Virus record (IMG/VR): IMGVR_UViG_3300009372_000131 | DNA from: a virus | Strand: one strand, 5' to 3' | DNA length: 37,103 bases | Part shown: positions 1,780 to 37,103 of the stretch, piece by piece | Position numbering within the stretch: the stretch's first letter is position 1 | How the letters are laid out: each line of letters opens with the position of its first letter | Made by a program: the position numbers and the translations under genes | Notes under the pieces: model-generated | Seen by the model: only the letters and a program-made list of their open reading frames with translations | Told to the model about the DNA's origin: nothing | Databases searched by the model: none

Positions 1780-4700
1780 TTAGTTGTTGAGTGCCTCAGA
1801 CACTAGTTGCTTCCTGCTTTTGATTCGCATTTCGCGCTGGGCCTCTCTGATTTCGGGGAATTCGCGTAGGAGGCGATTTCTCGCTGCCCTGCGGAAGATG
1901 TTGATGTATTTCTTGATCATCTCAGCCCGCGGTGAGGGGACACCAGGCAGGGTTTCAGGAGATGCACGCAAGTACGCTTCAGTCTTGAAGAGCTTCTTTA
2001 GCGCCTGCTTCAAGTGCATTCCTTCAACTGTCACCACACCATGCAGCTCCATGAACCTGTCGTAGGCATCTTGACCCTCTGCGTTCTCAAACTCGCGATA
2101 GTCGATTCCACCAGGTCGTACCTGCGGTGGGTAGAACGCTGTGCCTTTCAGAGAAGCGAATTCACCGAGCACAGACTCATCGTTGGTCTCTGTGTACTGG
2201 ATAGGCAGGAACATGGACTCAATGATTGAGAGCCCAGGGCGCTTCGACATTGTGCCCTTGCGCTTCACAACCTCACCTAGCACATTGCGTTGTGGCGGGA
2301 GTGTCTTAGAGAAGTAGGGCACTCGAGCTAGAGCGTATTCTAACAGTCCACCAACTTCGCGCATTGTATCGTCACCTGTCAGTGGCATCGCAGGCACGCC
2401 TAATGTACGCGGTAGAATGTTAGGGACAAACCCTCCGAAGATTGGGCGCATAGCTTTCAATGCTTGTTCGCTGTCAGCGCCCCCCATCTCCATCATAGCC
2501 TTGAGTCCCTTCATGTAGGACTTCTCGGTGAAGTTGTTCTGTGCAGCAGCCCAGAGCCCAGAGGCAACTGCCTCAAGTTTAGAGGTGTCATCTGTCCCTG
2601 TCTGGCTTAGAGCTGCCACTACATCCGCTACCGTCCCGAGCATGGTCGCCAGCGGGTCCAGGCGATGGAACGAATAGGCTTTGCCACCTATGAGGAACGA
2701 GTAAGGTTGCCAACCTGTCTCTGACCTCTCCAGCAGTTTCCGCTCTTGCAAGTTCGCCGGCCCGCGCCCCGTGATCTTGCCCTGCATCGCCAGGTTCCAA
2801 GCAGTGACAACCAACGCGTTACCTAGCATGACCCGTCCAACAGCTTCACGCTGAATGATCACATCTCCACTACGCAGTTCTTTGACAACGCGACTCCTGA
2901 TCTCGTTCAGGGCTGGCGTGCTCCTCCTGAAATTGATGGGCTCTGCAACCATCTTTGCCATCTCCATCGGATTCATCCTGTCTGCCGCATAGAGCAGGAG
3001 GTTCGTTGGCGTACCTACAAACGGGATGTAGAATCTCGCCGGCCAGAAATCTGCTGTGAAGGATTGAAGTCCAGCCGCGATGCCTGACAGTGTCCCACGC
3101 TCCTTGGAGTGCTTTTTGGTGAAGGTGTTCTCTTCAGCGAATCCCATAGCCTCATCCACAAAGGCGCGGTTTTCCTTGTACTGTTTCCGAGCGTAACGCT
3201 TTGCGAATGGCAGAGCTTTCGCCTTGTCACCTTTGAAGTGCTTCAGGCCCATCGCTAGACCGCGTTTGAAGAACTCTTCAGACGCGATGATCTGACCGTT
3301 GTCCACGATGCGATCCATCTCCTTGACAACATACTCAGCAGCCTCTGCCCCTTGCATGCCTAACTCTGTCATCCCTTTGTCGAAGAGACGCATCTTGATG
3401 CGTGAGCGGAAGTTGATCTGCTTGAAGAAGTTGTCCATGTTCTCCAGCAGAGTGCCTGAGATGTTGACCATCTTGCCTACACGCTCAACCAGCGCTGCCC
3501 CACCTGGGTGCTTATCAATGAAATCCTGGGAGAGGGTATGTTGCCCAATTGATCTGTTGCGCCCAATAGCCTGCCACTTGGTATTGCCTATCGGGCGCAG
3601 GAACTCGTTCCTTTCAACAGACAGTCCTAGGGACAGAGCATCGAGGGTGTCGCTGGTGATGAACTTGATCTGCTCAAACGCAGCACGCATGCCTCGCGAG
3701 TTGAGATTCACCAGGCTACCTGCGGCGAGCTCGACAGGACGCAGCGCAAGCGTCATCGAGTTGCCAATGATGTTCGCCACATGCGTGGCGGGGGCGCTCA
3801 AAATGGCATTCACCCAGCCTTCTGTGACTACATCACCCCAACGGAACTTCTTGCCGCGGAGCATCTTTGCAACGCCGGCCATCTTCTCAAAGTCAGACAG
3901 GTGGGGGTTCTGCTTGAGTGCAGCTGAGACACGGTCAAGCTGGCGCTGGATAGCTTTTGTGTCCAGCCCCTGCTCTGCCAAGATCTTCTTGAGTTGGGAT
4001 GGCTGCAGCCCTCCTAGGGGCGTCTGCATGAAGCGACCCTGGCGGCCCCATTCTCCCCTGAAGTCCCGCACGCCACTCGAGGCTGTAGTGAAGTTGTCTA
4101 CCGCCTTCATCGCGTCCATCATGTCACCGAGGCTGCCTGTCTTTTCAGCCTTCTTCATCAGGCGCGTGAACTGATCAAACAGGGGTGCCATCGTCATCTC
4201 GTGAGCCATGGCACTCTGGCCTAATTCACGCAAGATGTCTGCGTCACTCATGCCTGCACCAAAGCGGCCCGTCAGGGAAGGGTTCAGCTTCTGGATGAGG
4301 CCGGCGTCATCCACATTGTAGAAGTCTTTCATCTTCTGCATCGCAGAACTGAGTTGCTCCTCAGTGACGAGTTCGCGCCCTTTGATCATCTTGGAGTGCT
4401 TGAGATCTAGCGCTCTGATCAGGTTGACCATGTCCTGGGGGTTTGCAGTTGAGAGCAGAGTGTTCTGTACATTCAGACCCTTGCGTAGAGTGAGCCTGCG
4501 GTACAACTCAGAAGTGGAGTATCGATAGCTCCCATCCTCCAGACGCTCTCTAGGGTTCAATATCTCGCCGCGGCCCTCTCCATGAGCCCAATCACCAGGG
4601 TTGCGTCTCTCGGCAATGTCAAGGATCTCCTGAGCATTGTCAGGCATGAACTCATCAACTTGAGAATCAGCTCTTGCTACTGCCTCTTCAGCGTCATCAA

Positions 4701-21315: not shown

Positions 21316-21643
21316 CAGTCTCCTCCTTGAGCTGTCGTTTCACTTCTTTGTCCCAATCGCAAATCGATTGGTAGAGCTGCAACCAGGCTGCGTCAGGGTC
21401 ACCCGCTCCAAACCCATTCGCGTCTGTCCAGTTGCGTGCTTGTGCTATTACCCTGAACCCTGCCAGCAGGAGCACGCGCATCTTCCGCATCCACACCTCG
21501 TTCTCCAAGCGCTCCTTTATCAGCAGCCTGTCTGATTTCCTGAGCGCCCTCTGCATTCTCTTTACCTGTGCACGCAATGCAAATTCAGCTAGAGATGCCT
21601 TGTGAGAAGGCCGCGGTTCGTCATCCATTGCTGTAAATTTCAA
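21296..21643 (-). CDS. Hypothetical protein
   Basis: 115 aa between the primase-helicase and the DNA polymerase, overlapping both. No motif recognised. Confidence 0.5.
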   Translation of the reverse strand: MKFTAMDDEPRPSHKASLAEFALRAQVKRMQRALRKSDRLLIKERLENEVWMRKMRVLLLAGFRVIAQARNWTDANGFGAGDPDAAWLQLYQSICDWDKEVKRQLKEETDDENHN

Positions 21644-23277
21644 AAGGGCACACCACTGTCGGCAGTTGTAGGCACAACCTTCAGCGCAGGATCAAACTCA
21701 ACTAGCCTTCCAGTCTCCTCGTCATAACGCAGATGCCCAGCTGGGCCACAGATACCTGACCAGCGATTTTTCACAATGGTCAGTTTGGTTTGATGCCTTG
21801 AGTCTTCCTCGCTAGTGATGTTGCGAGACAGTCCAATTACCCCGTCAGCGAGTTGAGCAATTCCACCAGACCCGCGGAGATGCGATAGCGCAACCTGTGC
21901 TCCGCCTTCATGATCGGTGTCAGAGACTCTGCGGAGGTGTGACACCACAATCAGACTGCAGTCTAGCTCAGAGCACAGCGTGCGTAAGGCAGTGAAGAGC
22001 ACATCTAAAGCCTTGCGCTCATCATCGAGACCAAGGCCGCTGATTGCCATATGGGCATGATCGAGGACAACGAACCTAGCACCCAGAGCCTTCACCGCGT
22101 AGCGAATGCGGTTCATCAGGGGCTCCAACTGCATGCTGCCAAAGTGCGCCCACATAATGCACTTGTCTCTGATCACCTCATCGAAGGCTGTCTGCAATTC
22201 ATCTTGATCTAATTCGTTTGGCGGCAGCAGATGGATAGGCTTTGACAGGTGCAGCGCAAGCAGAGCCAGGGCTGAACGCTTCACGCTTTCCTCAAGCCCG
22301 AAGAATGCAACTTTGTGCCCCTGCTTGATCAGTGAATAGGTGACCTCTCTGGTGAACTGAGTCTTGCCAACACCTGTGCCCGCCGCAATCACATACATCT
22401 CTGCGCGCAGCCCCCCGAACATATCGTTGAGTTTTTGATAAGGCCATTCAGCAACTGTGCCTGATTCCTTCTCAGTCAGCGCATCCCAAACCTCATCGCC
22501 AACGACAATGCCGTCAGGTGAATACGCTCTAGCCTGGAAGATCGCATCAATCACCTCTTTGCTGCGCCCTTGCGCGACCATCTCGCACGCATCTTTGAGA
22601 GGCAGGCGACCGATCTTTGCACGGCCTGGACTCAGGATCTCAGCGCATTCTGCTGCAGCTTTCTGCCCACTTGCATCTGAGTCGAAGAGCAGTACTACCT
22701 CACGCCAGGTTTCCAACCACTCGAGCTTCTTGAGGAATGTCTTCTTCGCACCCCCGTCCCCGCAGGGCACGCTGACAGTCGGCCACTTCCCCCCGCTTGC
22801 CTGCCAGACAGCATGAGCATCGTGCTCACCTGTGCACACAATCAGGCGACCGAAGACACTTGGACCTGGCGCAAACAAGTGGTCCCCATAGAATCCACAC
22901 TTGGACATGTTGCCTAGCACCTTGAAACTCTTGCCGGCGTACCTGAGTTTCTGCGCTACAACTGTCCCGCCTGAGTCACGGTACTGGAAGACCAGCACCC
23001 TCTGACCCGCTCTGTCTGTTGCAAAGCCACACCCAAATTTCTCGAGCGTCTCGCGGCTGAGGCGTCTGTTCTGAATTCCAGCAGCCTCACACTCCAGCAG
23101 CCCCGCGTCGCGCTTTACTACCTGACCGTTCGTAGGCACAGCGCTGCCCCCTGTGTTGGCCTTGCAGGAAAAGCAGTGCGCTGTGCCGTTGTCATACACA
23201 GCACGCGCATCGCTTGACCCGCAGTCAGGGCAGGGCTCGTGTCGCAGAAAGTTTGAAGGCTCAGAATCAAACGGCAT
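21640..23277 (-). CDS. Bifunctional primase-helicase (T7 gp4-like)
   Basis: 545 aa. N-terminal zinc ribbon CPDCGS...CFSC, TOPRIM-like CTGEHDAHAV / LLFDSDASGQ, DnaB-type Walker A AAGTGVGKT and Walker B VVLDH. Confidence 0.95.
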   Translation of the reverse strand: MPFDSEPSNFLRHEPCPDCGSSDARAVYDNGTAHCFSCKANTGGSAVPTNGQVVKRDAGLLECEAAGIQNRRLSRETLEKFGCGFATDRAGQRVLVFQYRDSGGTVVAQKLRYAGKSFKVLGNMSKCGFYGDHLFAPGPSVFGRLIVCTGEHDAHAVWQASGGKWPTVSVPCGDGGAKKTFLKKLEWLETWREVVLLFDSDASGQKAAAECAEILSPGRAKIGRLPLKDACEMVAQGRSKEVIDAIFQARAYSPDGIVVGDEVWDALTEKESGTVAEWPYQKLNDMFGGLRAEMYVIAAGTGVGKTQFTREVTYSLIKQGHKVAFFGLEESVKRSALALLALHLSKPIHLLPPNELDQDELQTAFDEVIRDKCIMWAHFGSMQLEPLMNRIRYAVKALGARFVVLDHAHMAISGLGLDDERKALDVLFTALRTLCSELDCSLIVVSHLRRVSDTDHEGGAQVALSHLRGSGGIAQLADGVIGLSRNITSEEDSRHQTKLTIVKNRWSGICGPAGHLRYDEETGRLVEFDPALKVVPTTADSGVPF

Positions 23278-24411: not shown

Positions 24412-26829
24412 CTAATGGAAAAAGTAGGGTGAGTCCTTAACGGACTCAACAGGGAAATCGCCTTGCGGCGGGGGAGGAGGACACTCGACACCAGCAGGTA
24501 GCATTGCATCTACCTCGGCTTTGAATGCCTCGAAGGGATTGCCTGAGAAGATCTCAGCCCAGGCAGAACGGAGTGCCTTATGCAGGCGGGGGATGTTGGC
24601 CGCGTGCACTCCGTACGAATCGTGGACGCATGACCAGGCAGTGATTGCATCATCACCCTTGCTGGCCTGGGCTACGGTGAGCTGACACGCAGCAGCATCG
24701 TAGGAATGGATGAGGTTAGCCGGCGTGGCTTGGCGCACTCGGCGTCCGTTGATCTCGTCTTGATCTACCCTATAGAGGTGCTTGCGGCATACCTCACCTA
24801 CTGAGCTCTTGATCCTCACCGTCTCCCACTTGCTGTAGCGCTGAACAACAGGGAATCCTACAACAGGGGTTGTCCAGCGCAGCGCAATCCCATGACTGGT
24901 GCATAGGTCTGCTACCCCGTGGAGCCAAGCCATAGCAACCTTTGCTGCGACCACTGTCTCGCCTATCGCGTCCCACATGATCTGCGCCAAGAATGTGCAA
25001 TGATCATAGGTGTCTAGCGTGAACGGTGTAGGTTGACCGCCTAAGCGCAGATCGTCATACCAGGCAGTGATTGAGCGCTGGCATGAATAGATCGTGCTTC
25101 CATAGCACAAGGTCATCGTGGGTTTTTTAGCGGCAGATCTTGGCATCTCACCATCAACAAACTGCAGCCAGCCCTTCGCATGCGGGTGGTCTGAAGCCTC
25201 GAGTTTTTGAGTCACAAGATCGGAGACCTCCTGATAAATATCCGCAGGTCTATCAGCTGGCGCAACACTCACAGATGCTGCTGTCTCTGCGTGTCTCATC
25301 GCAAGAGCGAAACACTGAAGACCATTGTTCACCCCATCCACATGCACAGGCAGATGACTCACGAACCCTAGCCCCTTGTCAAGGAATTCACCGTACTCCA
25401 AACACCATGCGAGGAATTCCCAAGCGCTCCCCTCTGCCTCTGTCCACCAGGTACATGAGATCGGGTCAGAATAGACCTCATAGATCGCTGACCTATTGTC
25501 ATGCACCCACTGAATTCGTTCAGCGAATGAGCACTTGTCAATGCCAAAGTGGTTGGCACCTGAGATGGCAAACGCATCAGCCTGCTCTTGATTTGTGATT
25601 GCCATCCCATCCCAGAATTCAAGCAGGGATCGCGCCTTCTCATCTCCCTGCGGCTGAAGGAAATAGGGAACAGGGTAGAGGCGTGATCGGAAGTCAGCGC
25701 TCATCGGGAAGTAGAAGGGAATGAACTCGAACTTCTCTGCCATGTATAACAAGCGTGCGATTTGTACACGCTTGCTCTTCAGCTTGAGATTGCGCTGGTG
25801 TACAGCTGCCGCGGTGCGCTTCCACTGCTTGAGGATGACCTTGTCTTCAGCCATTCCCGGCAGTGGGGGAGGGAGCTCAAGATCATTACGCGAGGGCAGG
25901 CCGGCGATCTCTGAGGACTCATCCCAGAAATGCTTGAGCACAGTCAGCACATTCTGATTGACCCTCCACTTAGTGCGCTGCAATGCGTTGACCGCATCGT
26001 AGAACAGCGGCATCTCGGTTGAGTCAAGGTCAGCCAGGTATGCGTTCCTCGTGGTCTTCACCAAGGGCTTGCGTAGGATCTCGTTTGTGTGATAGCCCCC
26101 GCCCCTCATTGCAAGGTGATCGAGAGGTATTGCAACAGTAGGCAGCCAGAACGGCATCAGCACCTCATGCTGTGCATGCGCCGAGTGCAGCCAGTCTTCT
26201 GTGGCTTTGGTTGCTGCTAGCATTGTCTGCTTGCGACCGCGGTGATTGGTTTGAGTGCAGACAGTGATCACTCCCTCTGCTGCACATGTCATGCCTATTG
26301 TTGCCTGCCGCATCAGCTCGATTGCAGCCAAGCCAACCTTGATGCGTTGCTTCTTAGGCATCGCTTCGACTTCAGTCTTGTGCCACACCGCACCTGAGTG
26401 CAGAGCCCTGCGTACAAAGTGCCTGCTGCTCAACTTGTGTCGGCGCAGGATGCGATTGAATTTGACAGGGTGCTCCTCTTTGAACCTGGAGAAATTGATC
26501 TCGTCCTCAATCGCTGCACCGATATGCTCTGCTGCGCTGATCATGCTGCGCCTCAGGCAGATGTCATCTAGCACTGCACGCGCAATGATGTGCGCGGCGA
26601 TGTTAGGATCCAGGCGCTTGAGAGTTTTGACCGCGGGCCTCGTATGAGCGTGAGGGTCTGATGTCCAGCGCTCGATAGCGTCAGCGAGAACTGCAACGCA
26701 TTCACGCAGCAGATGCTGACCTGGCGCAGTCACTGTCTCACGCCGGCCAGCGCGTGCTGAAGCTACCGTCTGCCTGTACCGAGTGATGCCTGCGTTCAGC
26801 ATCTCGATTTCTAGTTCAGCTTGACGCAT
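24412..26829 (-). CDS. Single-subunit DNA-directed RNA polymerase (T7 gp1-like)
   Basis: 805 aa. VHVDGVNNGLQ (motif A Asp), RSAAKKPTMTLCYGS (motif B region), CVHDSYG (motif C). The N-terminal ELEIEMLNAGITRYRQ resembles T7 RNAP. Confidence 0.95.
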   Translation of the reverse strand: MRQAELEIEMLNAGITRYRQTVASARAGRRETVTAPGQHLLRECVAVLADAIERWTSDPHAHTRPAVKTLKRLDPNIAAHIIARAVLDDICLRRSMISAAEHIGAAIEDEINFSRFKEEHPVKFNRILRRHKLSSRHFVRRALHSGAVWHKTEVEAMPKKQRIKVGLAAIELMRQATIGMTCAAEGVITVCTQTNHRGRKQTMLAATKATEDWLHSAHAQHEVLMPFWLPTVAIPLDHLAMRGGGYHTNEILRKPLVKTTRNAYLADLDSTEMPLFYDAVNALQRTKWRVNQNVLTVLKHFWDESSEIAGLPSRNDLELPPPLPGMAEDKVILKQWKRTAAAVHQRNLKLKSKRVQIARLLYMAEKFEFIPFYFPMSADFRSRLYPVPYFLQPQGDEKARSLLEFWDGMAITNQEQADAFAISGANHFGIDKCSFAERIQWVHDNRSAIYEVYSDPISCTWWTEAEGSAWEFLAWCLEYGEFLDKGLGFVSHLPVHVDGVNNGLQCFALAMRHAETAASVSVAPADRPADIYQEVSDLVTQKLEASDHPHAKGWLQFVDGEMPRSAAKKPTMTLCYGSTIYSCQRSITAWYDDLRLGGQPTPFTLDTYDHCTFLAQIMWDAIGETVVAAKVAMAWLHGVADLCTSHGIALRWTTPVVGFPVVQRYSKWETVRIKSSVGEVCRKHLYRVDQDEINGRRVRQATPANLIHSYDAAACQLTVAQASKGDDAITAWSCVHDSYGVHAANIPRLHKALRSAWAEIFSGNPFEAFKAEVDAMLPAGVECPPPPPQGDFPVESVKDSPYFFH

Positions 26830-27776
26830 TACCTGATCCTTGCCCAGAGATCTCTGAGTGCGAGGGCTGCTTGTTGGGGGACAACGGCATTGCCGAGGGC
26901 TCTAAGCTGATCCACCCGCACGGGAACCCCATCAACCACTCCACGAATAGAGGATTCAGTCGCAGGCCAGAGGTCCTCTGGGACATTTGACCAGTCTCCT
27001 TCGGGACCTGGTGGGAAGGTGGCGTCTGAAACCTCTGCTCTGCTGCCTCGTCTAGCTGCCCTTGGCGTTGGTCTAGTTGAAACGATCCCTTGTGGTCGTT
27101 TGCTCCTGGTGTCGGCCAAGCCTTTGCCTCCTTGTCCTGAGTTACACCCTTGTGGTCTCTCTCTGCGGGAGTGCGCCACTGCCTCATCGAGTCGGTCAAT
27201 GTTGTCCCTGGATGCATCACCCCCGTCTTGGTCGAGTGCCTGCCGCTCGAACGGGAATCCCCTGCCACAGCGGTAGGCCAAGACGAACACTCTGTTTCTG
27301 CGCTGAGTAGATCCGGCTTGGGCTGCGGAATAAACTCCCCACTCAGCATCGAACCCCAGTTCCATGAGATCTTCGAGGACTTGACGAAGTCCCTTGGAGA
27401 TATGTCCTTGGACATTTTCGAGAACAACGAGAGCTGGCCCACATTCTCTGATGATTCGCTTGACCTCAGGCCAGAGGTGTCGAGGGTCTTCAACTCCTTT
27501 GCGTGCTCCTGCACAGGAGAAGGGTTGGCATGGGTATCCCGCAGAGACAATATCCACGCATCCACTCCACGCTGCGCCATCGAAGGATCTAAGATCCGTC
27601 CACACAGGAGCGGGAGCCAGCCTCCCTTCCTCCATGCGCGATACCAGGACTTGGCAGCACGCGGCTTCCCTCTCCACGAAACAGACTGTTCGAGCGCCTG
27701 GAAACGCCAATTCGATTCCGAGATCGAGTCCTCCGATTCCTGAACAGAGGCTGAGTACCCTGGGACAACTATCCAC
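26829..27776 (-). CDS. DNA (cytosine-5)-methyltransferase, frame A. The catalytic motifs are intact, but the region between motifs VIII and X reads as low complexity.
   Basis: 315 codons, GTG start. Motif I LSLCSGIGGLDLG, IV PCQPFS, VI ENV, VIII QRRNRVFVL, X LGNAVVP. See the frame B segment and the findings. Confidence 0.8.
   Translation of the reverse strand: MDSCPRVLSLCSGIGGLDLGIELAFPGARTVCFVEREAACCQVLVSRMEEGRLAPAPVWTDLRSFDGAAWSGCVDIVSAGYPCQPFSCAGARKGVEDPRHLWPEVKRIIRECGPALVVLENVQGHISKGLRQVLEDLMELGFDAEWGVYSAAQAGSTQRRNRVFVLAYRCGRGFPFERQALDQDGGDASRDNIDRLDEAVAHSRRERPQGCNSGQGGKGLADTRSKRPQGIVSTRPTPRAARRGSRAEVSDATFPPGPEGDWSNVPEDLWPATESSIRGVVDGVPVRVDQLRALGNAVVPQQAALALRDLWARIR
26912..27280 (-). other. 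Alternate-frame (frame B) segment inside the methyltransferase gene, carrying target-recognition-domain-like motifs
   Basis: Part of track ORF 26816..27778. WPTAVAGDSR, WRTPAERDHKG, WPTPGANDHKGS and LNPLFVEWLMGFPCGW, offset by one nucleotide from frame A. Confidence 0.6.
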
Positions 27777-27779
27777 AAC

Positions 27780-27995
27780 TCAGCGCACCCCCAGATCTGT
27801 CAGCTTGAGTCTGCCTGATTGAGATGTACGCATCTTGTGGTGATGCAGCTGCAGACCATCAGCGGTCAAGACAATCACTCCATCGATTCCTTCCCCAGGC
27901 TTAGGCACCTGGTGTGTGCGGTAGGAACGACAGGCAAGCGTGAGCAGACTCAAGCTCAGGGCTGTGAGGATCACAACCTTGCACGGTAATTTCAT
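27780..27995 (-). CDS. Small secreted protein/lipoprotein candidate
   Basis: 71 aa. The signal-like MKLPCKVVILTALSLSLLTLAC has Cys after the hydrophobic core. ATGA overlap with the upstream mini-ORF. The stop lies 3 nt before the methyltransferase GTG. Confidence 0.5.
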   Translation of the reverse strand: MKLPCKVVILTALSLSLLTLACRSYRTHQVPKPGEGIDGVIVLTADGLQLHHHKMRTSQSGRLKLTDLGVR

Positions 27996-28316: not shown

Positions 28317-28765
28317 GCCTGCCTCCTGCGCTCTGATGGGGGAGATGCCTCGCCTCTCCGCTGCAATGCTTCAGAGCACGCCGCGTGCAAGCATCTCTCT
28401 CGCAAGATGTCAGCGGCATAATCATGGCTGCCATCGAACACATTTTCTGCTGCTCGAAGTGTCAGCGTGAACTCGCATGGCTCGCCGGCCAAGGTGATTG
28501 AATCCCTGAGCCTGTCCAAGTACCCCGCGAAACATGTCACGCAGAGAGACAAACTGGATCGTTCTGTGCGAGGAGTGGTCCCTTTAGGAACACAATATTC
28601 AGCCTGTCCCCAGCAGTGCGGATGCTCACATCTCTCGCCCTTAGGAGGCAGAGATGAGCGTGGGGGGCGCGGCACCTCTGACTCTATCCCATGATTGCAC
28701 GGCAAGGGCAGGCATTCCCAACCCATTGTGTCGGATAATGTATGTCGTGTTCCCTTATCAATCAT
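28313..28765 (-). CDS. Hypothetical Cys-rich early protein
   Basis: 150 aa. ATGA overlap with the integrase stop. Cys pairs CLPLPC, CEHPHC and CVTC suggest metal binding. Function unknown. Confidence 0.45.
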   Translation of the reverse strand: MIDKGTRHTLSDTMGWECLPLPCNHGIESEVPRPPRSSLPPKGERCEHPHCWGQAEYCVPKGTTPRTERSSLSLCVTCFAGYLDRLRDSITLAGEPCEFTLTLRAAENVFDGSHDYAADILRERCLHAACSEALQRRGEASPPSERRRQA

Positions 28766-29817
28766 GACTCATCCCCCTCAGGCGCATATCTGCGTTCCAT
28801 CGCATCCCTTGCACCTGTCAAGTGGTCTGGTGCCAGATGTGCATAGGTGTGCGTGACCTGCACGCTCGAATGCCCAAGCCATTTGCTCACTTCGTAGAGC
28901 GAGATCCCGCTCATGACCAGGCGGGAGGCACAGGTATGCCTCAAGGTATGCGGGGTGATGCCAGCAGGGTCAAGGCCGGTCTTCAGCTTCGCTCGATTCC
29001 ACTGCTTGCCAAAGGTAGCCTGATTGATTGCGAAAGGCACAGGCAAACCATCAGCGTGCCTCGTCTTCATCACATGCAAGGCACGCTCAGGAATAGGAAC
29101 GCTCCTGTTCTTGTTTGACTTTGTACGAGTGAAGGTGACCTGGCCGCGGTCGAGATCAACATTGTCCCAGGTTAGACTCAATGCCTCACCTACTCGACAC
29201 CCTGTCCACAGCAGGAAGACTGCCAGGTCATGCGCTGCCTGCGAGATAGTGAGCAGAGCCTGGAACATCTCAGTCAATTCATCCTCGCTCAAGAATCGCG
29301 CTTCCTTCGCCGGCTCATGCACATGAGGCAGCTTGGGACGGTCGCTGATCCAGCGCTCTTCCAGGGCTACAGTGAGCATGCGCCCAAGCGTAGACACAAT
29401 GCGCTTCACCGTGCTAGGTGCCAGGTCAGCCTGTTGCAGCGAGGTGATCAACTCACGCACGCTGCCTGTTGTGATTGACTTGATAGGCGTGCTCTCACCC
29501 ATCTCTTCTATGATCCTGCCTGTTGTGCTTGTGACCGTGTCCTCTGAAGGAGATCCAGCCCAGACATGATCAAGACAGTAGGTACGCAATTGCTCGAGCG
29601 TCTCAGGCGCTGCACCCTTAGACAGTCTGCGGCCTGACGCACGACGCGGGTCTGACCCTTCGAGAATTGCAGCACGCATCCTGAGCTGCGCCAGCTCTGC
29701 CTCCTGCTCTGTCGGATAGCTGCACCTGATGCGCTTCTGCACACCGTGCACATCTTTGAACGACAGGTCTACCTGCCATGAATCAGCTCTGCGCTTGATC
29801 ACTCCTGAACTTGTCAT
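28762..29817 (-). CDS. int: Tyrosine recombinase / phage integrase
   Basis: 351 aa. TGCRVGEALSL (Arg I), HTLRHTCASRL (H-x-x-R), LGHSSVQVTHTYAHL (His/Tyr nucleophile region). AAGGAGG/GAGGAG lies upstream of the ATG. Confidence 0.95.
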   Translation of the reverse strand: MTSSGVIKRRADSWQVDLSFKDVHGVQKRIRCSYPTEQEAELAQLRMRAAILEGSDPRRASGRRLSKGAAPETLEQLRTYCLDHVWAGSPSEDTVTSTTGRIIEEMGESTPIKSITTGSVRELITSLQQADLAPSTVKRIVSTLGRMLTVALEERWISDRPKLPHVHEPAKEARFLSEDELTEMFQALLTISQAAHDLAVFLLWTGCRVGEALSLTWDNVDLDRGQVTFTRTKSNKNRSVPIPERALHVMKTRHADGLPVPFAINQATFGKQWNRAKLKTGLDPAGITPHTLRHTCASRLVMSGISLYEVSKWLGHSSVQVTHTYAHLAPDHLTGARDAMERRYAPEGDES

Positions 29818-29983: not shown

Positions 29984-30114
29984 CTAGACAGCCAGGAAAC
30001 CCAGTTCTAGGTGCCTGGTTTGGGGTTTGTTTGGGGTGTGCTGTCCTGCTCTTGGGGCGCAAGAATGAGGGCTGTGCTCTTTCTCTTTGTGCCGATAGGA
30101 TAGGGATTCAGGCA

Positions 30115-31029
30115 ATGGTGCCTGTCCAAACAACGGACAAGACAATGACAACCAGAATTGAACTAGAGCGCGATATCCAAGAGCGATGGACCGCGATACA
30201 AGACAAAGCCCGCACAATCAGGGTACCGCTCCCAAAGAAATTGACCCTATTAGGCTCGAGCCGAAAGGTAGCGAAGTCAGACAAAACCTTCCCGGACACT
30301 AGGTCAAGGATCCTATACCTATCGCCGGCGCATGAGGCATTCTCTGACGGGGCAGACGATGGGCGCACGCTTTGCCCTTGGGCTACTCCACAGTGTGCTG
30401 CTGCGTGCCTAGCCCACAATGCCGGACAACTGGCGCTGCCCCATTCAAAGATGGCGCGCATTTGGAAGACCACTCTATTTCTCGGTGACCGACTCGCTTT
30501 CCGCGCTCTGCTCAAGAGTGAGCTCGAGGCATTTCAGGCGGCATGCGAAAAGGCTAGTCTAAAGCCAGCTGTCCGCTTAGACGGAGGCAGCGATACTGGG
30601 GAGGCTGCGGTCTGGTTTAGGAATTACCCAAAAATTCAGTTTTTTGATTACACGAAAAGTTATCTGCGCGCACTAGTTCACAGCGCCTGGCGGGCCTCGA
30701 GAACTGACGGAGTGGAAGGCAAAGACTCCAATTGGACGGTGTGCTTTTCATTTGATGGGACCGAAACCGGCCACCGTAATGCAAAGCGTATTCTCAAAGC
30801 CGGCGGGACCGTATCAGTTGTCTTCAATGTGCGTCCAGAGACAAGACACCGCACAGCCGATCTTCTACCAGACTCTTGGAACGGGTTCCCAGTTTTTGAC
30901 GGTGATGAGCATGACTTTCTACCCGCTGATCCAATTGGAGCGGTACGCGGGCTGAGGTTTAAAGCCCTACGGGACCGGGCCGGCATGCTCAAGGCAGCGG
31001 GCTCATTTGTGCAGGAGGTACAGTCATGA
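30115..31029 (+). CDS. GP88-family-like protein with a Cys cluster (conserved phage protein of unknown function)
   Basis: The frame is open from 30031 (TTG). The first ATG is at 30115, with an alternative at 30145. LCPWATPQCAAACL, VRLDGGSD, IQFFDYTK, VSVVFN, FDGDEHDF and GLRFKA fit the CP.as.gC...CL / vRLNg.SD / vqfYDYTK / vdGD.hDlRf pattern I recall for this family. Confidence 0.6.
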   Translation: MVPVQTTDKTMTTRIELERDIQERWTAIQDKARTIRVPLPKKLTLLGSSRKVAKSDKTFPDTRSRILYLSPAHEAFSDGADDGRTLCPWATPQCAAACLAHNAGQLALPHSKMARIWKTTLFLGDRLAFRALLKSELEAFQAACEKASLKPAVRLDGGSDTGEAAVWFRNYPKIQFFDYTKSYLRALVHSAWRASRTDGVEGKDSNWTVCFSFDGTETGHRNAKRILKAGGTVSVVFNVRPETRHRTADLLPDSWNGFPVFDGDEHDFLPADPIGAVRGLRFKALRDRAGMLKAAGSFVQEVQS

Positions 31030-33148: not shown

Positions 33149-34852
33149 TCAGGTGTGGAGTGATGTTGTGGTCATCCAGTTTGGTCCCTGCGGGCGTGAG
33201 ATGCCGTCAGCGTCAGCGAGGAACTTCTCGATTGCGATGTCTGTCAGTTCCTCTTTGCGTCTTACCATTTGTGTCGCAGCATCTTTGGCGAGTTGATCGA
33301 TGAAGTGTGTGCAGGCTTGAGCAAGCACATCAACCCTGTCATCATTTGGCAGGCATCCCTTTGAGCGATTGATCCTTGAAATCTGGTAGGCGAGTGAGTA
33401 ATGCGCTGCCCTCTCACCGCGGTCAGAGCTCTGCACAGAGTTGTAGTCTTTTGCCAGCACCTTCTTGTCAACAACTAGACGATGAGAAGAGAGGATAGGC
33501 TCAAGCGATTGATCAATGATCCTGACCTCCTTCTGTCCTGTGCTCCTAGATTCGCTGATCACGCAGGGGTAGATCTCGCGCATCACAGGACGCATCAGCT
33601 CTGTCACAGCGCCATCCCCGAAGTTGTTCTCAATGATGATCTCATTCACTTCCCAGCGCTTGCAGTATTGAGCAATTGACCTGAGCGTCTTCTCTGAGTA
33701 TCCGTCTAGCCAACCCTCGACCTGGCGTATGAAGATATACCCATTCAGTACTTGCGCGATGCAGATAGCTGACTCATCTTTGCCGCGTCCACTTGGGTCA
33801 AATGCACAGATTGTCTTCTCAGGCTCGAGGTGATCGCCTTCAACCTTGAAAGGTCTGTAGTACCTGTCCCCGCTGAATCCTATGCAGGGCAGGTCTTTGA
33901 TCTCTAGATCAGGGTCAGCAGCCCAGATCAAGCGCTCAGGCAGCAGGGTCTTGTCAAGACTATGCACGATCATGTCACTCAACTTCAGAGGCCAACGGTC
34001 AGCGTCTGTTGTCGTAGTGTTCAGCTGATACTGCAGCTTGAAGTTCTGCGTACCACTCGAGGCTTGTCTCTCGGCTAGATCTAGATCTGTGAACCTGCCT
34101 GGATCAGTCGCGCTGCCTTCGATTTTAGGATTGTCCAACAGCGCCTGGTGAATCGATGGAGCCAACCCACCATCGTAGTGGTTGATGTCCTCCTGACTGG
34201 GGTAACGCGCCGGCCAGTAGCGGGTTGAGAAACCCTTCGACTTGAGTGACCTGTAGATCGATTCATGTGATTGAGGTGTTCCTAGGATGATCTGCCTTCC
34301 CCCGGCCTTCATCAGGTTCTCGAACTCTGCGATGCGATGCAGCAGGCGCTCGCGCATCAGGGGGCTGATTGAATTGTTGAGGCTTTCAGCATCATCAGCA
34401 ATCAAGATGTCAGAGCGCATGCCGGTGAGCTGGCCCGTAGCACCTGAAGAATACACAGAAGGCTGATGTGCGGCCGGTGCGCCGGCAACATCGAAGGCAA
34501 CCTTAGCATTGCGTTGGTCAGGCCCAGGATACATATGCTTGAAGATCTCCATCTCCTGCATCAGCCGCATGCAGAACCCACTGAAGAGGTCAGCTCGAGC
34601 TCTTGAAGCGCTGACAATCACGCAGTTGAGAGCAGGATTGTGCAGCAATGAGTGCAGGATGAACGCTGAAGTCAACAGACTCTTTCCGATCCCCCTGTAG
34701 CCGCATATGAAGATCCTCTGATCCTCTGTTTGCAGGAAATCTGCTAGTTCGTACTGCAGCGGGGTAGGGTCAAACCCCAGATGAGTGAAGACCAGGTACG
34801 CTGTGTTACGAAAGTCCTTGAGTCTTGGGTCAATCTGAGGCGCTTTTGTCAA
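33149..34852 (-). CDS. terL: Terminase large subunit (T7 gp19-like)
   Basis: 567 aa. FICGYRGIGKSLLTSAF, VIVSASRARAD, GATGQLTGMRSDILIADDAE and ILGTPQSHES parallel T7 gp19 ([57 protein letters not shown]). TTG start in a TTGA overlap with terS. Confidence 0.95.
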   Translation of the reverse strand: MTKAPQIDPRLKDFRNTAYLVFTHLGFDPTPLQYELADFLQTEDQRIFICGYRGIGKSLLTSAFILHSLLHNPALNCVIVSASRARADLFSGFCMRLMQEMEIFKHMYPGPDQRNAKVAFDVAGAPAAHQPSVYSSGATGQLTGMRSDILIADDAESLNNSISPLMRERLLHRIAEFENLMKAGGRQIILGTPQSHESIYRSLKSKGFSTRYWPARYPSQEDINHYDGGLAPSIHQALLDNPKIEGSATDPGRFTDLDLAERQASSGTQNFKLQYQLNTTTTDADRWPLKLSDMIVHSLDKTLLPERLIWAADPDLEIKDLPCIGFSGDRYYRPFKVEGDHLEPEKTICAFDPSGRGKDESAICIAQVLNGYIFIRQVEGWLDGYSEKTLRSIAQYCKRWEVNEIIIENNFGDGAVTELMRPVMREIYPCVISESRSTGQKEVRIIDQSLEPILSSHRLVVDKKVLAKDYNSVQSSDRGERAAHYSLAYQISRINRSKGCLPNDDRVDVLAQACTHFIDQLAKDAATQMVRRKEELTDIAIEKFLADADGISRPQGPNWMTTTSLHT

Positions 34853-35436: not shown

Positions 35437-35655
35437 TTAAGTCAAAAGGTTGAAGATGAGGGCGATGCCACAAGAGCACGCGGCAGAGAGTCCGAGCACC
35501 CAGGACTTGCTTTTTTCAAGTTCTCGAATGCGCGTCTCATGACCACGAAATGCCCTGTTCAGGTTTGATGTCTGGGAGATGAGTGCGTCCACTTTCCCCT
35601 CGAGCCTACCAAGAAGGAAGTGCACATCATGGTCATCCCCAGCGCTAGGACTCAT
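35437..35655 (-). CDS. Small tail-anchored membrane protein, in the position of the T7 gp17.5 holin
   Basis: 72 aa. Coiled-coil-like LGRLEGKVDALISQTSNLNRAFRGHETRIRELEK, then the C-terminal TM WVLGLSAACSCGIALIFNLL. It lies between the fibre genes and terS. Confidence 0.45.
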   Translation of the reverse strand: MSPSAGDDHDVHFLLGRLEGKVDALISQTSNLNRAFRGHETRIRELEKSKSWVLGLSAACSCGIALIFNLLT

Positions 35656-37103
35656 GCGACAGTGATTGTGTGCGTGCCAGGTGCAGCAGTATTCAGTACT
35701 GCATTACCCCTGGGAGACCAATGAATGCCCGCCTTAGGCCAATGTGTAGTTGGCGCAGGAGGTGCTGTAGACGCGGTGAACTGCTGGAACTCAACGCTGT
35801 GCATCAGCACGCCTTCCTTGTTCTGTGCCATCTCCACAGGTGTACTGCCGTGAGTGGCTGAATCGTATGCGATGGGGTACTGAATAGGATTGACTGAGTC
35901 AGTTCCTTCAACCTCTGCCCCAATCCCATCCGAGTAGACGAAACTCGAGTCGATCTTGTGACAGTAATAGTACCCCACACCAAACGCATCTTCGAACACA
36001 CCGTAGGTGTCGTCATCATGCCCTGAGTGCTGCTCCCAAAACCAGTGCTTAACTCCTGACGAGTCGGGAAAGACGCTGACTGAAGCACCGTTCTTGGCAA
36101 CACCTGGCGTGAGCCCGGTAACATCAGTTGCAAATGTAGCACCGTGATTGCGGTCCTGCGTGCGTACACGCATCCCTACCCTATGCAGTGCAATGTTCCG
36201 ATTGAGCACCTCGTTCTCAGTCCAGTGAGCAATGCGGTAGACACTCCTTGACCATGCTTGCGTGATGTGGCCTGTGTCAGGCCCTCCACCCCAGACCACA
36301 TCGAAGCTCTGGCGAATATAAGGCAGCGCCCCAGCATCGGTGTAGTTGGCGTTGGGCGTGAACGCAGATAGGGCCGTTCCTGTGACGGGGTCAGTAGCTT
36401 TTGAATCTGTCGTATTCTGCGGCTCCGCAGTTCCAATAGGCAGTGACTTGTCATCCTGATCAACGCCGCCTAGCAATGTGTTCCTAGGGTCAGCCGGAAT
36501 GCGAGGCCAATCTGTTGTCAGAGGCCACCACTCTGTACCTGCACCCATTGTATCTGTGCTGTGACACCAGAGATTCTCGTCAGCGTGGACAGGCTTTGCG
36601 CCAGTCACCCAGGCTTGAGTGTCAGGATCCCAAAGCCTGTCAGAGTACGCTACCTGGTCGCTCTCATAGTCAGCGACAATAGTGCCTGATGTTCCTGAAG
36701 CCATGCTGCCGTCATGCTCAACGGTGAAATTGCGAGATTGCGTACCGGCCGCAAATACGAGAGAGCCCGACGCGGTGCCTGTGATCGCTGACGCTAGGTC
36801 CCCTTCAGCCTTCCAGTAGATCGTAGGCTCTTCGCCGGCCAGAGGTATGTAGCTGAGGTGGACCCCAACAACTTGAGCAGTTTCTGCAGCAACTGACCCT
36901 CCTGGTGTGCTGATGTCCACCAGAGGAGGATCTGTTGAAGGGATGATCACTACCTGGCAGTGATTTGTTGCTGCGCTCAAGACCGCACCATCCACTGCTG
37001 TGATGGTGATGTTTAAGAACTTCTCGAAGAACCACTTCTCCTGGTCAATCAGTGTGATCTGAATAATAGCAGAGCTGTTGCCTTGCCTAATCGTGAGCGG
37101 GCT
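35652..37103 (-). CDS. Tail fibre/tailspike-like protein 2, C-terminal part (continuation of 407..1 across the junction)
   Basis: The track ORF 35652..36995 stays open upstream to the window end. The translation across the junction is continuous (..ITAVDGAVLSAATNHCQVVII..). Confidence 0.75.
   Translation of the reverse strand, partial: SPLTIRQGNSSAIIQITLIDQEKWFFEKFLNITITAVDGAVLSAATNHCQVVIIPSTDPPLVDISTPGGSVAAETAQVVGVHLSYIPLAGEEPTIYWKAEGDLASAITGTASGSLVFAAGTQSRNFTVEHDGSMASGTSGTIVADYESDQVAYSDRLWDPDTQAWVTGAKPVHADENLWCHSTDTMGAGTEWWPLTTDWPRIPADPRNTLLGGVDQDDKSLPIGTAEPQNTTDSKATDPVTGTALSAFTPNANYTDAGALPYIRQSFDVVWGGGPDTGHITQAWSRSVYRIAHWTENEVLNRNIALHRVGMRVRTQDRNHGATFATDVTGLTPGVAKNGASVSVFPDSSGVKHWFWEQHSGHDDDTYGVFEDAFGVGYYYCHKIDSSFVYSDGIGAEVEGTDSVNPIQYPIAYDSATHGSTPVEMAQNKEGVLMHSVEFQQFTASTAPPAPTTHWPKAGIHWSPRGNAVLNTAAPGTHTITVA
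36985..37103. repeat. Terminal overlap, copy 2 (identical to 1-119)
   Basis: Direct comparison. Confidence 0.95.

Follow-up and report, generated by a model that had tools for sequence, protein, structure and literature searches.

A short segment on the minus strand of the window (by which we mean the whole 37,103-nucleotide stretch of virus DNA that was analysed, IMG/VR record IMGVR_UViG_3300009372_000131) can be read in two frames as the ending of a cytosine methyltransferase. One frame gives LNPLFVEWLMGFPCGW, while the other gives ESSIRGVVDGVPVRVD, which is followed by QLRALGNAVVPQQAA and runs directly into QLRALGNAVVPQQAALALRDL. Both readings are present, within the positions given for them in the first-pass annotation, which proposed that the two strings are motif classes related by a frameshift and that these 48 nt are either a living intermediate between them or a genuinely dual-coded segment. 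The question raised by the locus is therefore which of the two it is, and how far the double coding extends. Our analysis indicates that the whole methylase gene is dual-coded, beyond the flagged 48 nt. We think it probable that the gene at 26816-27778 encodes two proteins in two frames of one mRNA, which together most likely constitute a single C5-cytosine DNA methyltransferase.

The methylase gene adjoins, directly upstream, a T7-type RNA polymerase gene in the genome of a T7-like phage with an integrase, and the TAA stop codon of frame A overlaps the polymerase ATG as TAATG. The two reading frames, named A and B (products alpha and beta), are co-extensive over ~950 nt, with starts 2 nt apart (TTG at 27778, GTG at 27776) and stops 13 nt apart. 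The features of both frames are collected in Table 1.

Table 1. Features of the dual-coded methylase gene, with positions in the window.
Feature	Position	Strand	Evidence or remark
Shine-Dalgarno-like, G-rich run GGGGGTG (27786-27792), and stop codon TGA ending the upstream ORF (27780-27782)	27780..27792	-	sequence read
Overlapping dual start TTGTGG	27773..27778	-	sequence; conserved among relatives
Frame A ORF (alpha, 315 aa)	26829..27776	-	GTG start, TAA stop
Frame A content: C5-cytosine methyltransferase large domain, linker and motif X	26829..27776	-	PF00145, phrog_363, AF2, Foldseek
Frame B ORF (beta, 320 aa)	26816..27778	-	TTG start, +1 relative to A
Frame B content: W(P/R)T(P/A)xAxDxKG repeats and motif IX	26816..27778	-	phrog_1008, profile search, hhalign to P0282
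Frame A motif I LSLCSGIGGLDLG, AdoMet binding	27717..27755	-	A wobble position least conserved
Frame B patch PSMAQRGVDAWILSL	27542..27586	-	family consensus PSTAxRGVxxWISSL
Frame A motif IV GYPCQPFS, catalytic Cys	27516..27539	-	P82, C83, P85, S87 invariant
Frame A motif VI ENV	27411..27419	-	E120, N121, V122 invariant
Frame A motif VIII QRRNRVFVLAY	27273..27305	-	overlaps first frame B repeat ...ECSSWPTA
Frame B repeat 1 ECSSWPTAVAGDSRSSG	27242..27292	-	sequence; codon-position conservation
Frame A linker, aa 169-253, R/G-rich, predicted disordered	27018..27272	-	AF2; gap-rich, unconserved in A
Frame B repeat 2 WRTPAERDHKG	27146..27178	-	sequence; codon-position conservation
Frame B repeat 3 WPTPGANDHKG	27086..27118	-	B wobble least conserved at A 216-225
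Frame A FPPGPEGDW	26991..27017	-	position 3 least conserved; B identity equals control frame; pLDDT 66-81
Frame B motif IX LNPLFVEWLMGFPCGW, aa 274-289	26912..26959	-	B selected; hhalign to P0282
Frame A reading ESSIRGVVDGVPVRVD, aa 274-289	26910..26957	-	low confidence in A model
Frame A motif X and helix QLRALGNAVVPQQAALALRDL	26847..26909	-	A selected, B unconserved; pLDDT 83-97

The protein read in frame A is a C5-cytosine methyltransferase; it has motifs I-VIII and X but lacks a folded target-recognition domain (TRD). It matches PF00145 over aa 6-172 (E 2e-33), phrog_363 (E 2e-63) and TIGR00675 (E 1e-27), and its more than 4600 homologues all belong to PF00145. Motifs I (GxGG), IV (PCQ), VI (ENV) and VIII (RxR) are found in order along the polypeptide, their motif residues being invariant in 81 homologues, and motif X (GNxVP) is found as LGNAVVPQQA at aa 294-303, with G295 and N296 invariant. 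At motif I, A is the selected frame, since its wobble position is the least conserved there. The AF2 model of frame A has pLDDT values of ~95 over aa 1-172, 90-97 over aa 288-314, ~40 over aa 185-251 and 52-57 over aa 271-290; no folded TRD with motif IX was found between motifs VIII and X in the last two stretches. With this model, Foldseek aligned M.HhaI and M.HaeIII over only ~170 columns (M.HhaI E 9e-14), and the PF00145 and Foldseek matches are both confined to the large domain. Within the linker, the frame A string 'GLADT' is a shadow of the frame B 'WPTP'. Further along, P255, P258 and W262 of FPPGPEGDW are nearly invariant.

Relatives were collected at 245 loci, namely a first set of 85, another 80 found by frame A only, and 80 in bacterial genomes. 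The first set consists of 80 loci fetched by frame B similarity together with L001, N15, Yong-M2-251, Eagle and the window itself; the ascertainment bias of the 80 loci fetched with frame B was checked by the resampling with frame A only, with the same outcome. At all 245 loci, the frame A homologue has a frame B homologue in its +1 frame, and the dual arrangement occurs in phages and in many bacterial phyla.

Over the flagged nucleotides, it is the frame B reading that is selected. LNPLFVEWLMGFPCGW is aligned by hhalign with RLAAAFSEWMQGWPLGW of the single-chain enzyme P0282 (probability 96.6%), and, judged by its sequence, LNPxFVEWLMGFPxGW is the canonical motif IX. A helix is predicted by AF2 at B 276-283 (pLDDT 84-89). 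Column identity at the motif is 0.71-0.82 in B versus 0.38-0.52 in A, and the pairwise identity of LFVEWLMGFP is 0.72-0.92 in frame B versus 0.27-0.73 in frame A. Across A codons 276-285 the least conserved position is the first codon position of A, which is the wobble position of B; this bears out the earlier remark that the match is not free and requires particular synonymous choices in A. The consensus strings given in the first-pass annotation are also real, as two readings of one DNA segment: by one strict pattern, at 72 of the 85 first-set loci the same nucleotides yield LNPxFVE(W/A)LMG(W/F)PxGWT when read in one frame and, when read in the other, (L/V)EPxxxR(V/M)ADG(L/V)xxRVDRLRxxGN(G/A)VVP. 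The agreement greatly exceeds what chance would give. Their interpretation as two motif classes that are frameshift relatives is not supported, because the strings are not homologous classes. One is motif IX and the other, including 'RGVADGVP', appears to be mostly its out-of-frame shadow; within the frame A string, selection in A is confined to 'RVDxLRxLGNAVVP', which comprises motif X with the residues leading into it.

These observations leave very little probability for the proposal that the locus is an evolutionary intermediate in which one C-terminal motif class arose from the other by a frameshift. The two consensus strings are indeed exact out-of-frame readings of each other, and the frame of motif X differs from that of motif IX when compared with the single-chain and Eagle-type relatives, so that indels did occur. 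However, the same architecture is stable, widespread and intact at every one of the 245 loci, which is not what a living intermediate would look like; purifying selection acts on both frames in complementary segments, and 'RGVADGVP' behaves as a shadow, with lower conservation than the B reading and low model confidence.

The frame B protein belongs to a large family of its own. phrog_1008 matches its whole length (E 1.3e-24), at least 250 homologues were found (best E 1e-116, 30-63% identity over 90-99% of the length), and a frame B profile matches 48,856 cluster representatives out of 1.84 billion. Pfam and NCBIfam gave no match to frame B or to its Eagle, N15 and Yong-M2-251 versions, and no Pfam domain was found in the best 120 of the at least 250 homologues. 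Searched against PDB sequences, the frame B profile found no methyltransferase; its only hit, in which a short piece of the MS2 coat protein (PSNFANGVAEWISS) is weakly matched, was regarded as chance. Modeled alone by AF2, frame B is of low confidence (mean pLDDT 58, pTM 0.24). In repeat 3, the first two codon positions of B are rich in nucleotide information and the third is poor in it. Profile-profile comparison relates both frames to the same reference, since P0282 (412 aa, PF00145) is aligned across motifs I-VIII with the A profile (probability 100%, E 6.5e-49) and across its TRD and motif IX with the B profile (probability 96.6%, E 6.3e-10). On this computational evidence, each frame is homologous to its own part of a single-chain enzyme.

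A different possibility is that frame B is real and unrelated in function to the methylase, for instance a separate protein, overprinted on the gene, that acts in DNA binding, regulation or anti-defence. This would fit the lack of Pfam and NCBIfam matches, the largely disordered prediction for B alone, and the long N-terminal part of B that has no counterpart in single-chain enzymes. We nevertheless consider it unlikely, as the selected segments of B are exactly those homologous to the single-chain TRD repeats and motif IX, frame A lacks exactly those parts, and M.EcoHK31I, discussed below, offers a precedent.

The N-terminal half of frame B requires separate consideration. Its pairwise identity of 0.35 compares with 0.31 for the +2 control frame and with 0.24 on permutation, and strong amino-acid constraint is not supported for this half, with conservation near that of the control frame. 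The conservation seen there thus seems to be mostly a by-product of A, so that about half of beta is without demonstrated function beyond staying open. Two exceptions to this weak constraint are the N-terminal hexapeptide and the PSTAxRGVxxWISSL patch. The latter, PSMAQRGVDAWILSL in the window, is the sole stretch of the N-terminal half with unusually conserved A wobble positions: third-position identity is 0.54-0.62 at A codons 56-80 versus 0.35-0.45 elsewhere, B is conserved more than A at A codons 76-80, and AF2 predicts a helix at B 68-80 (pLDDT ~80).

Stop codons are avoided in both frames. With expected numbers obtained by synonymous-codon permutation of A, the +1 frame contains 22 stops against 307 expected (range 275-335), and the +2 control frame 858 against 1001 expected. 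In the N-terminal half, a single +1 stop was observed at 36 non-redundant loci versus 98 expected. Conversely, when B synonymous codons were permuted, 96 stops were expected in the A-frame linker and none was observed. The sample found by frame A only gives a similar picture, with 64 of 72 loci free of internal +1 stops and a mean of 12.6 stops in the +2 frame. As in overlapping genes, therefore, the +1 frame is stop-poor beyond synonymous permutation and constraint is frame-specific. Stop depletion in the alternate frame and synonymous-site constraint are signs that the first-pass annotation had suggested looking for; the former is found in the +1 frame, and the latter at the 48 nt, where conservation is frame-specific and B is selected. 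Its notion of a genuinely dual-coded segment is supported on both counts, with the correction that the segment is the whole gene and not 48 nt.

It could also be that frame B has no function and is a by-product, whether of composition, of codon usage, or of errors in sequencing or assembly. The GC content is ~56%, codon usage alone cuts the expected number of +1 stops to ~2-5 per gene, and much of the N-terminal conservation of B hitch-hikes on A. Against this, the deficit of +1 stops is accompanied by a +2 frame near expectation, the wobble position of B is the least conserved one both in the WPTP repeats and in motif IX, and the pair is intact in the genomes of the cultured phages Yong-M2-251 and Alfacinha1. 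We therefore regard a by-product as almost certainly the wrong explanation.

Following the selected frame along the gene gives an alternation of A, B, A, B and A. The blocks are A codons 6-165, WPTA and WPTPGA in B, FPPGPxGDW in A, LFVEWLMGFP in B, and RVDxLRxLGNAVVP in A, with the switch from A to B located at A codons 166-170. FPPGPxGDW is A-selected despite the B-selected segments on both of its sides. Computationally, both ORFs are conserved, both avoid stops, and selection is frame-specific and interleaved.

An alternation of this kind might be taken for a single mosaic polypeptide made by programmed ribosomal frameshifting, in which translation of A (motifs I-VIII) would shift +1 to B (TRD and motif IX) and then -1 back to A (motif X), restoring the canonical order of a single-chain enzyme. 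The order is indeed colinear with P0271 and P0282, and in Eagle one +1 shift would suffice. In the present family, however, the A-selected FPPGPxGDW between B-selected segments raises the number of shifts needed to at least four, and the mosaic has no need of two frames that are stop-free from end to end or of a conserved dual start and B N-terminus. A slippery site of the X_XXY_YYZ type, as would be expected at the junction of a programmed frameshift, is also absent between motifs IX and X from all 26 non-redundant loci, and both frames are open throughout and not just in the segments that would be used. A mosaic is thus highly unlikely; the constraint on A at FPPGP, the end-to-end openness and the lack of slippery heptamers led us to set it aside as the main model.

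Two separate products, each read from its own start, are more compatible with the 5' end of the gene. In the window, TTG (27778-27776) begins frame B as M-W and GTG (27776-27774) begins frame A, and an NTGTGG dual start is present at 48 of the 85 first-set loci (ATGTGG 31, GTGTGG 13, TTGTGG 4). The N-terminus of frame B, MW(L/I)(Y/H)(V/I/L)P, is conserved among relatives; among 54 distinct starts, column identity is 0.93 for Pro6 of frame B versus 0.07 for the residue that A has there. At 48 of these 54 dual starts, a purine run resembling a Shine-Dalgarno sequence lies within -16..-4. The GGGGGTG run of the window is of this type and may function as such, and the TGA of the upstream ORF lies 1 nt ahead of the dual start. 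Co-initiation at the 5' end is not universal, since B has an open frame across no more than the 3' two-thirds in N15 and in a few further lineages.

The two-protein enzyme that we favor can be pictured as follows. Alpha would supply the large catalytic domain, with motifs I-VIII, a disordered linker at the usual TRD position, FPPGPxGDW and motif X. Translation of beta would start 2 nt upstream of that of A, at the overlapping start (TTGTGG here and ATGTGG in most relatives), would first yield a leader under weak constraint, read in the +1 frame across the catalytic domain, and would then provide the small-domain parts of a single-chain enzyme, namely the TRD-like W-P-T-P-x-A-x-D-x-K-G repeats and motif IX, LNPxFVEWLMGFPxGW. 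By analogy with M.EcoHK31I and M.AquI, alpha and beta may associate, and the enzyme would probably methylate the phage DNA and so protect it from host restriction. Dual initiation, translation of frame B, the association of alpha with beta, the need for both and the anti-restriction role are all inferred.

A search of the literature for this arrangement returned only M.EcoHK31I and M.AquI as precedents, in addition to an unrelated case of a hidden HNH endonuclease. In M.EcoHK31I, described by Lee, Kam & Shaw in 1995 (as given in PMC2836561, PMC3404938), motifs I-VIII and X are on alpha, motif IX is on beta, whose coding sequence lies in a different frame inside the alpha gene, and activity requires both (PMC2836561, PMC3404938). 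The gene in the window shares these traits: its alpha has motifs I-VIII as well as X but lacks IX, its beta ORF lies inside the alpha gene in another frame (+1, as at all 245 loci), and its beta carries motif IX. The analogy is inexact, as the beta of M.EcoHK31I is only a short internal peptide and the TRD is kept in alpha (PMC2836561, PMC3404938), whereas the TRD-like WPTP repeats of the window are in frame B, where they are selected, and its beta is as long as 320 aa against 315 aa for alpha, with starts 2 nt apart. M.EcoHK31I also belongs to a restriction-modification system and is likened to the window gene by description, not by sequence.

M.AquI of Agmenellum quadruplicatum is a natural split of a C5-methyltransferase into alpha and beta within the variable region (Karreman & de Waard 1990, cited in PMC3404938), and detached fragments of such enzymes are able to complement each other (PMC3404938). 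The window enzyme is likewise proposed to consist of two polypeptides, but motifs IX and X, which are together in the small subunit of M.AquI, are divided here between frames B and A, and the ORFs overlap along their whole length. The layout of M.AquI is matched by the Eagle-type relatives: in mycobacteriophage Eagle, frame A (gp78, motifs I-VIII) stops shortly past motif VIII, and the +1 frame B (gp77) carries the TRD, IX and X. The single-chain enzymes P0271 and P0282, of an actinobacterial and actinophage type with PF00145 and LLPTPxAxDGxGG-repeat TRDs, have the same parts as the window, namely motifs I-VIII, the PTP-repeat TRD, IX (RLxxxFxEWMxGWPxGW) and X (GNGVVPQQA), but all in one frame and one polypeptide. 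Frameshifting indels must have occurred in the history of the arrangement, since the module of TRD and motif IX is out of frame here relative to P0271, P0282 and the Eagle type.

Same-strand nesting of cooperating products is also known from lambda Rz/Rz1, in which one gene occupies the +1 frame within the other. Rz1 is short and fully internal, whereas the window ORFs are co-extensive with an overlap of ~950 nt, and, unlike Rz and Rz1, the window frames encode two parts of one ancestral enzyme. The ShiLan insertion of actinophage methylase genes conceals an HNH endonuclease, a patchily distributed mobile homing element (PMC11855218) that does not form a conserved part of the enzyme.

With moderate confidence, we extend this reading to a family of phage and prophage C5-methyltransferases organized as a co-extensive, same-strand dual-coding unit of ~1 kb. 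In this family an NTGTGG double start would feed a large-domain and a small-domain frame, and the N-terminal half of the second protein would be overprinted on the catalytic domain. It would comprise tens of thousands of sequence clusters from Proteobacteria, Cyanobacteria, Acidobacteriota, Chloroflexota, Saccharibacteria and their phages. Should both proteins be made, the single curiosity of 1995, M.EcoHK31I, would become a general design principle, which a very large family of methyltransferases from mobile elements would use with coding that overlaps fully over ~950 nt. The pair would then be among the longest and most widespread overlapping genes known in prokaryotic viruses, and a clean natural case of two proteins sharing codons with constraint alternating in blocks.

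Such a reading would also account for a large family of 'hypothetical proteins' without Pfam assignment. Many annotated phage cytosine methylases have low-complexity 'LADT...GARL' linkers, which are the shadow of WPTPxARD repeats encoded in the alternate frame. A frame A ORF that had been 'cleaned' or codon-optimised would, when expressed, lose the second subunit. Existing annotations choose between the two frames inconsistently. In Synechococcus phage Yong-M2-251 the gene is annotated in frame A, and in its relative Ssp-JY39 the same gene is annotated in frame B as a 'hypothetical protein'. In Acidovorax phage Alfacinha1 it is the frame B ORF that is labelled 'cytosine-specific methyltransferase', and for the window's own gene either frame is called, depending on the contig.

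Both methyltransferase-like C-terminal strings that the first-pass annotation had read in two frames from the same 48 nt were recovered on re-reading; the dual reading, however, is not confined to these nucleotides, which are merely the tip of a 950-nt overlap between two nearly coincident ORFs, frame A (alpha) and frame B (beta). The window holds no other same-strand ORF pair of such size. Elsewhere, a 447-aa ORF with no Pfam match (35652-36995, minus strand) encloses a 121-aa ORF on the same strand (35804-36169).

Positions of the features discussed, with the frame under selection in each methylase segment
Feature	Position	Strand	Reading	Selected frame
Primase-helicase	21640-23277	-
RNA polymerase	24412-26829	-
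Frame A ORF	26829-27776	-	315 aa, GTG start
Frame B ORF	26816-27778	-	320 aa, TTG start, +1 relative to A
Frame B aa 274-289	26912-26959	-	LNPLFVEWLMGFPCGW
Frame A aa 274-289	26910-26957	-	ESSIRGVVDGVPVRVD
Direct continuation of frame A	26847-26909	-	QLRALGNAVVPQQAALALRDL
Integrase	28762-29817	-
GP88-family gene	30031-31029	+
Terminase	33149-34852	-
Frame-A codons	6-165	-	motifs I-VIII; A's wobble least conserved	A
Frame-A codons	166-170	-	B = WPTA	B
Frame-A codons	216-225	-	B = AWPTPGA	B
Frame-A codons	251-265	-	FPPGPxGDW	A
Frame-A codons	276-285	-	B = LFVEWLMGFP	B, strongly
Frame-A codons	286-314	-	RVDxLRxLGNAVVP...	A

By homology, frame A is assigned to the C5-cytosine methyltransferases: it matches PF00145 over aa 6-172 (E 2e-33) and phrog_363 over aa 5-309 (E 2e-63), and its more than 4600 homologues all carry PF00145. 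Frame B had no match in Pfam or NCBIfam, and a Pfam domain was found in none of its best 120 homologues. Its aa 75-301 match phrog_1008, 'DNA methyltransferase' (E 1.3e-24), and it has at least 250 homologues, at 30-63% identity and nearly full-length coverage. Against 1.84 billion proteins, a frame-B profile built from 98 members retrieved 8,881 cluster representatives at E<=1e-30 and 48,856 at E<=1e-3, not all of which need be overlapping genes, as some will be Eagle-type or single-chain enzymes. Members of the family share the N-terminus MW(I/L)Y(V/I)P, an N-terminal half without indels, a variable middle with 1-7 W-P-T-P-x-A-x-D-x-K-G repeats, and the block RLNPxFVEWLMG(F/W)PxGWT, followed by a tail that is not conserved. 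The profile also gave a short match to MS2 coat protein, PSNFANGVAEWISS against PSTAqrGVesWISS (B aa 63-90, window ~27510-27590), with E ~0.2-0.6 for single-copy chains and 7e-4 for tandem-dimer constructs only, which is probably due to chance.

A query with the protein of the Eagle gp77 type led to single-chain C5-methyltransferases with PF00145. In two of these, P0271 (423 aa) and P0282 (412 aa), a single frame holds motifs I-VIII, LLPTPxAxDGxGG repeats, RLAAAFSEWMQGWPLGWVTD and LRIIGNGVVPQQA. Using hhalign, the frame-A profile aligned with P0282 residues 2-164 (probability 100%, E 6.5e-49) and the frame-B profile with residues 226-374, a stretch spanning the repeats up to and including motif IX (probability 96.6%, E 6.3e-10). 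Because of these alignments to a single chain, the C-terminal half of B corresponds to the small domain (target-recognition domain, TRD, plus motif IX) and A to the large domain. The split matches the known structural division of these enzymes, in which motifs I-VIII and X form the large domain and the TRD and motif IX the small one (PMC3404938). The AF2 model of A is confident for aa 1-172 and 288-314, disordered for aa 185-251, and superposes on M.HhaI and M.HaeIII over only ~170 columns; that of B alone is poor except for local elements, the motif IX helix among them. The models are consistent with the domain division.

The pairing was followed across three sets of loci, 245 in all. In the first, of 85, were 80 IMG/VR loci retrieved with the frame-B family, the locus L001, three phage loci (Yong-M2-251, N15 and Eagle) and the window; another 80 IMG/VR loci were retrieved with the frame-A family alone so as to remove ascertainment bias, and 80 came from species-representative bacterial genomes, including Rhizobium, Sphingomonas, Devosia, Brucella endophytica, Myxococcus, Bdellovibrionales, Acidobacteriota, Chloroflexota, Saccharibacteria and Armatimonadota. 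The frame offset was the same in 245/245, the B homologue being +1 relative to the A homologue. Each of the 72 complete A ORFs in the frame-A-fetched set is accompanied by a +1 frame-B match, and 64 have no internal +1 stop; for seven of the other eight the first +1 stop falls within the final tenth of A, and for L109 two-thirds along it. The +2 frame of this set has a mean of 12.6 stops. A metagenomic contig encoding the homologue P0008 again has both ORFs open over the same extent (B 3001-3996, A 3003-3992, start ATGTGG).

In the three cultured phages, frame-B similarity is likewise found at +1 relative to the annotated methylase. The two ORFs are co-extensive in Synechococcus phage Yong-M2-251 (A 379 aa, B 371 aa). 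The +1 ORF of E. coli phage N15 gp58 (L002 1251-2261) has 215 aa and is open in the 3' two-thirds only; in N15 and a few IMG/VR loci (L076, L078) it becomes open only at about frame-A codon 55-70, and a second protein of such lineages would need an internal start. In mycobacteriophage Eagle (L004 1173-2313), frame A ends just after motif VIII (gp78), and the LLPTP repeats, motif IX and motif X lie together in the +1 frame (gp77). The enzyme is annotated in mycobacteriophages (146 records) as two neighbouring 'DNA methylase' genes, which could be either two subunits or one +1-frameshift product.

The alternate frame is depleted of stops in homologues, a check that the first-pass annotation had proposed. 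Permuting the synonymous codons of frame A per gene, with protein and codon usage preserved, gave an expectation of 307 +1 stops over 79 loci (range 275-335) vs 22 observed; for +2 stops, 1001 were expected and 858 observed. In a non-redundant subset of 36 loci (<65% pairwise frame-A identity), +1 stops numbered 1 vs 98 expected in the N-terminal half and 2 vs 56 in the C-terminal half. Conversely, permuting the frame-B synonymous codons of the linker gave 96 expected frame-A stops, and none was observed. Since stops fall far below expectation both ways, each frame is kept open where the other holds information, and the open second frame exceeds chance or hitch-hiking. Antisense ORFs opposite the gene, in the window (27150-27743, 197 aa, and 27394-27822, 142 aa, both plus strand) and in relatives (L001 3009-3626, 205 aa, and L003 1670-2356, 228 aa, both minus), are probably a by-product of two sense frames without stops.

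The selected frame, judged by codon-position conservation among divergent loci, alternates along the gene (table). For codons 276-285, column identity is 0.71-0.82 in B vs 0.38-0.52 in A, and pairwise identity 0.72-0.92 vs 0.27-0.73. A's first position (B's wobble) is the least conserved there. Of the two strings first noticed, the LNPxFVEWLMG-type reading is thus the selected one, in B, and 'RGVADGVP' is its shadow, an out-of-frame reading; within the 48 nt and their continuation only 'RVDxLR...GNAVVP' belongs to A. In the B repeats, the first two B codon positions have high nucleotide information and the third has low, also at the unselected-for Ala and Asp columns. Their frame-A reading, (L/V/M)-A-(D/N/H)-(A/T/S), accounts for the odd 'LADT...GARL' linkers of longer prophage enzymes. 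Prophage frame-A proteins of 400-460 aa on bacterial contigs of 0.8 Mb (P0204, P0215, P0199) have very long linkers rich in 'LADT/LANT...GARLQ' and 'LGNAEH' strings, which can be read as shadows of extra WPTPxARD repeats in the other frame. Conservation of the N-terminal half of B is mostly hitch-hiking (pairwise identity 0.35 vs 0.31 for the +2 control and 0.24 after permutation). The patch PSTAxRGVxxWISSL (A codons 56-80) and the N-terminal hexapeptide are the two exceptions; in the hexapeptide, the Pro6 column of B has an identity of 0.93 vs 0.07 for the corresponding A residue.

An overlapping start NTGTGG occurs in 48/85 loci of the first set (ATGTGG 31, GTGTGG 13, TTGTGG 4), mostly with a Shine-Dalgarno-like run 5' of it. 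In the window, the upstream ORF's stop TGA is followed by G and then by TTG (B) and GTG (A), and A's stop overlaps the RNA polymerase start in TAATG; in many relatives, the context of A's stop is ATGA. A simple frameshift mosaic joining A and B segments in one polypeptide is ruled out, because constraint interleaved as A, B, A, B, A would demand four shifts, both frames are open end to end, the double start is conserved, and slippery heptamers sought after motif IX were present in 0/26 loci. The best model is that one mRNA would give two proteins, A and B, each from its own start, with dual initiation predicted at the overlapping NTGTGG. By analogy with M.EcoHK31I and M.AquI, alpha and beta may then associate.

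M.EcoHK31I is a precedent for the principle: its beta chain is coded wholly in another frame of the alpha gene, has motif IX and is needed for activity (PMC2836561). M.AquI, described in PMC3404938 as a natural split enzyme, resembles the Eagle-type layout, and the same paper describes detached C5-methyltransferase fragments able to complement one another. Four features are new relative to these: two co-extensive ORFs that overlap and share a start region, a second frame holding the TRD-like repeats, constraint alternating block by block, and the breadth of the family; a literature search for a description of the whole arrangement found none.

The window appears to be a T7-like podophage, close to complete. 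It encodes a tyrosine integrase (PF00589), a primase-helicase, a terminase of the T7 type and an RNA polymerase sharing only 33% identity with the enzymes of Pelagibacter phages and Pseudomonas phage LUZ100; a GP88-family gene (PF17338) is the sole long one on the plus strand. The methylase gene lies immediately upstream of the RNA polymerase gene, a position that fits a putative role in early self-protection against restriction. Public annotation of the gene is inconsistent. The record of Yong-M2-251 (L003 1494-2633) has it in frame A, as 'cytosine-specific DNA methyltransferase', and that of its relative Ssp-JY39 (L246 601-1716) has the frame-B ORF, labelled 'hypothetical protein'; Alfacinha1 gp46, 'cytosine-specific methyltransferase' (L245 601-1734), is the frame-B ORF. 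Gene finders called the window's own gene (proteins P0001 and P0121) differently from contig to contig: on some in frame B, beginning at an internal Met (254 aa), and on others in frame A, beginning at an internal start (268 aa, without motif I).
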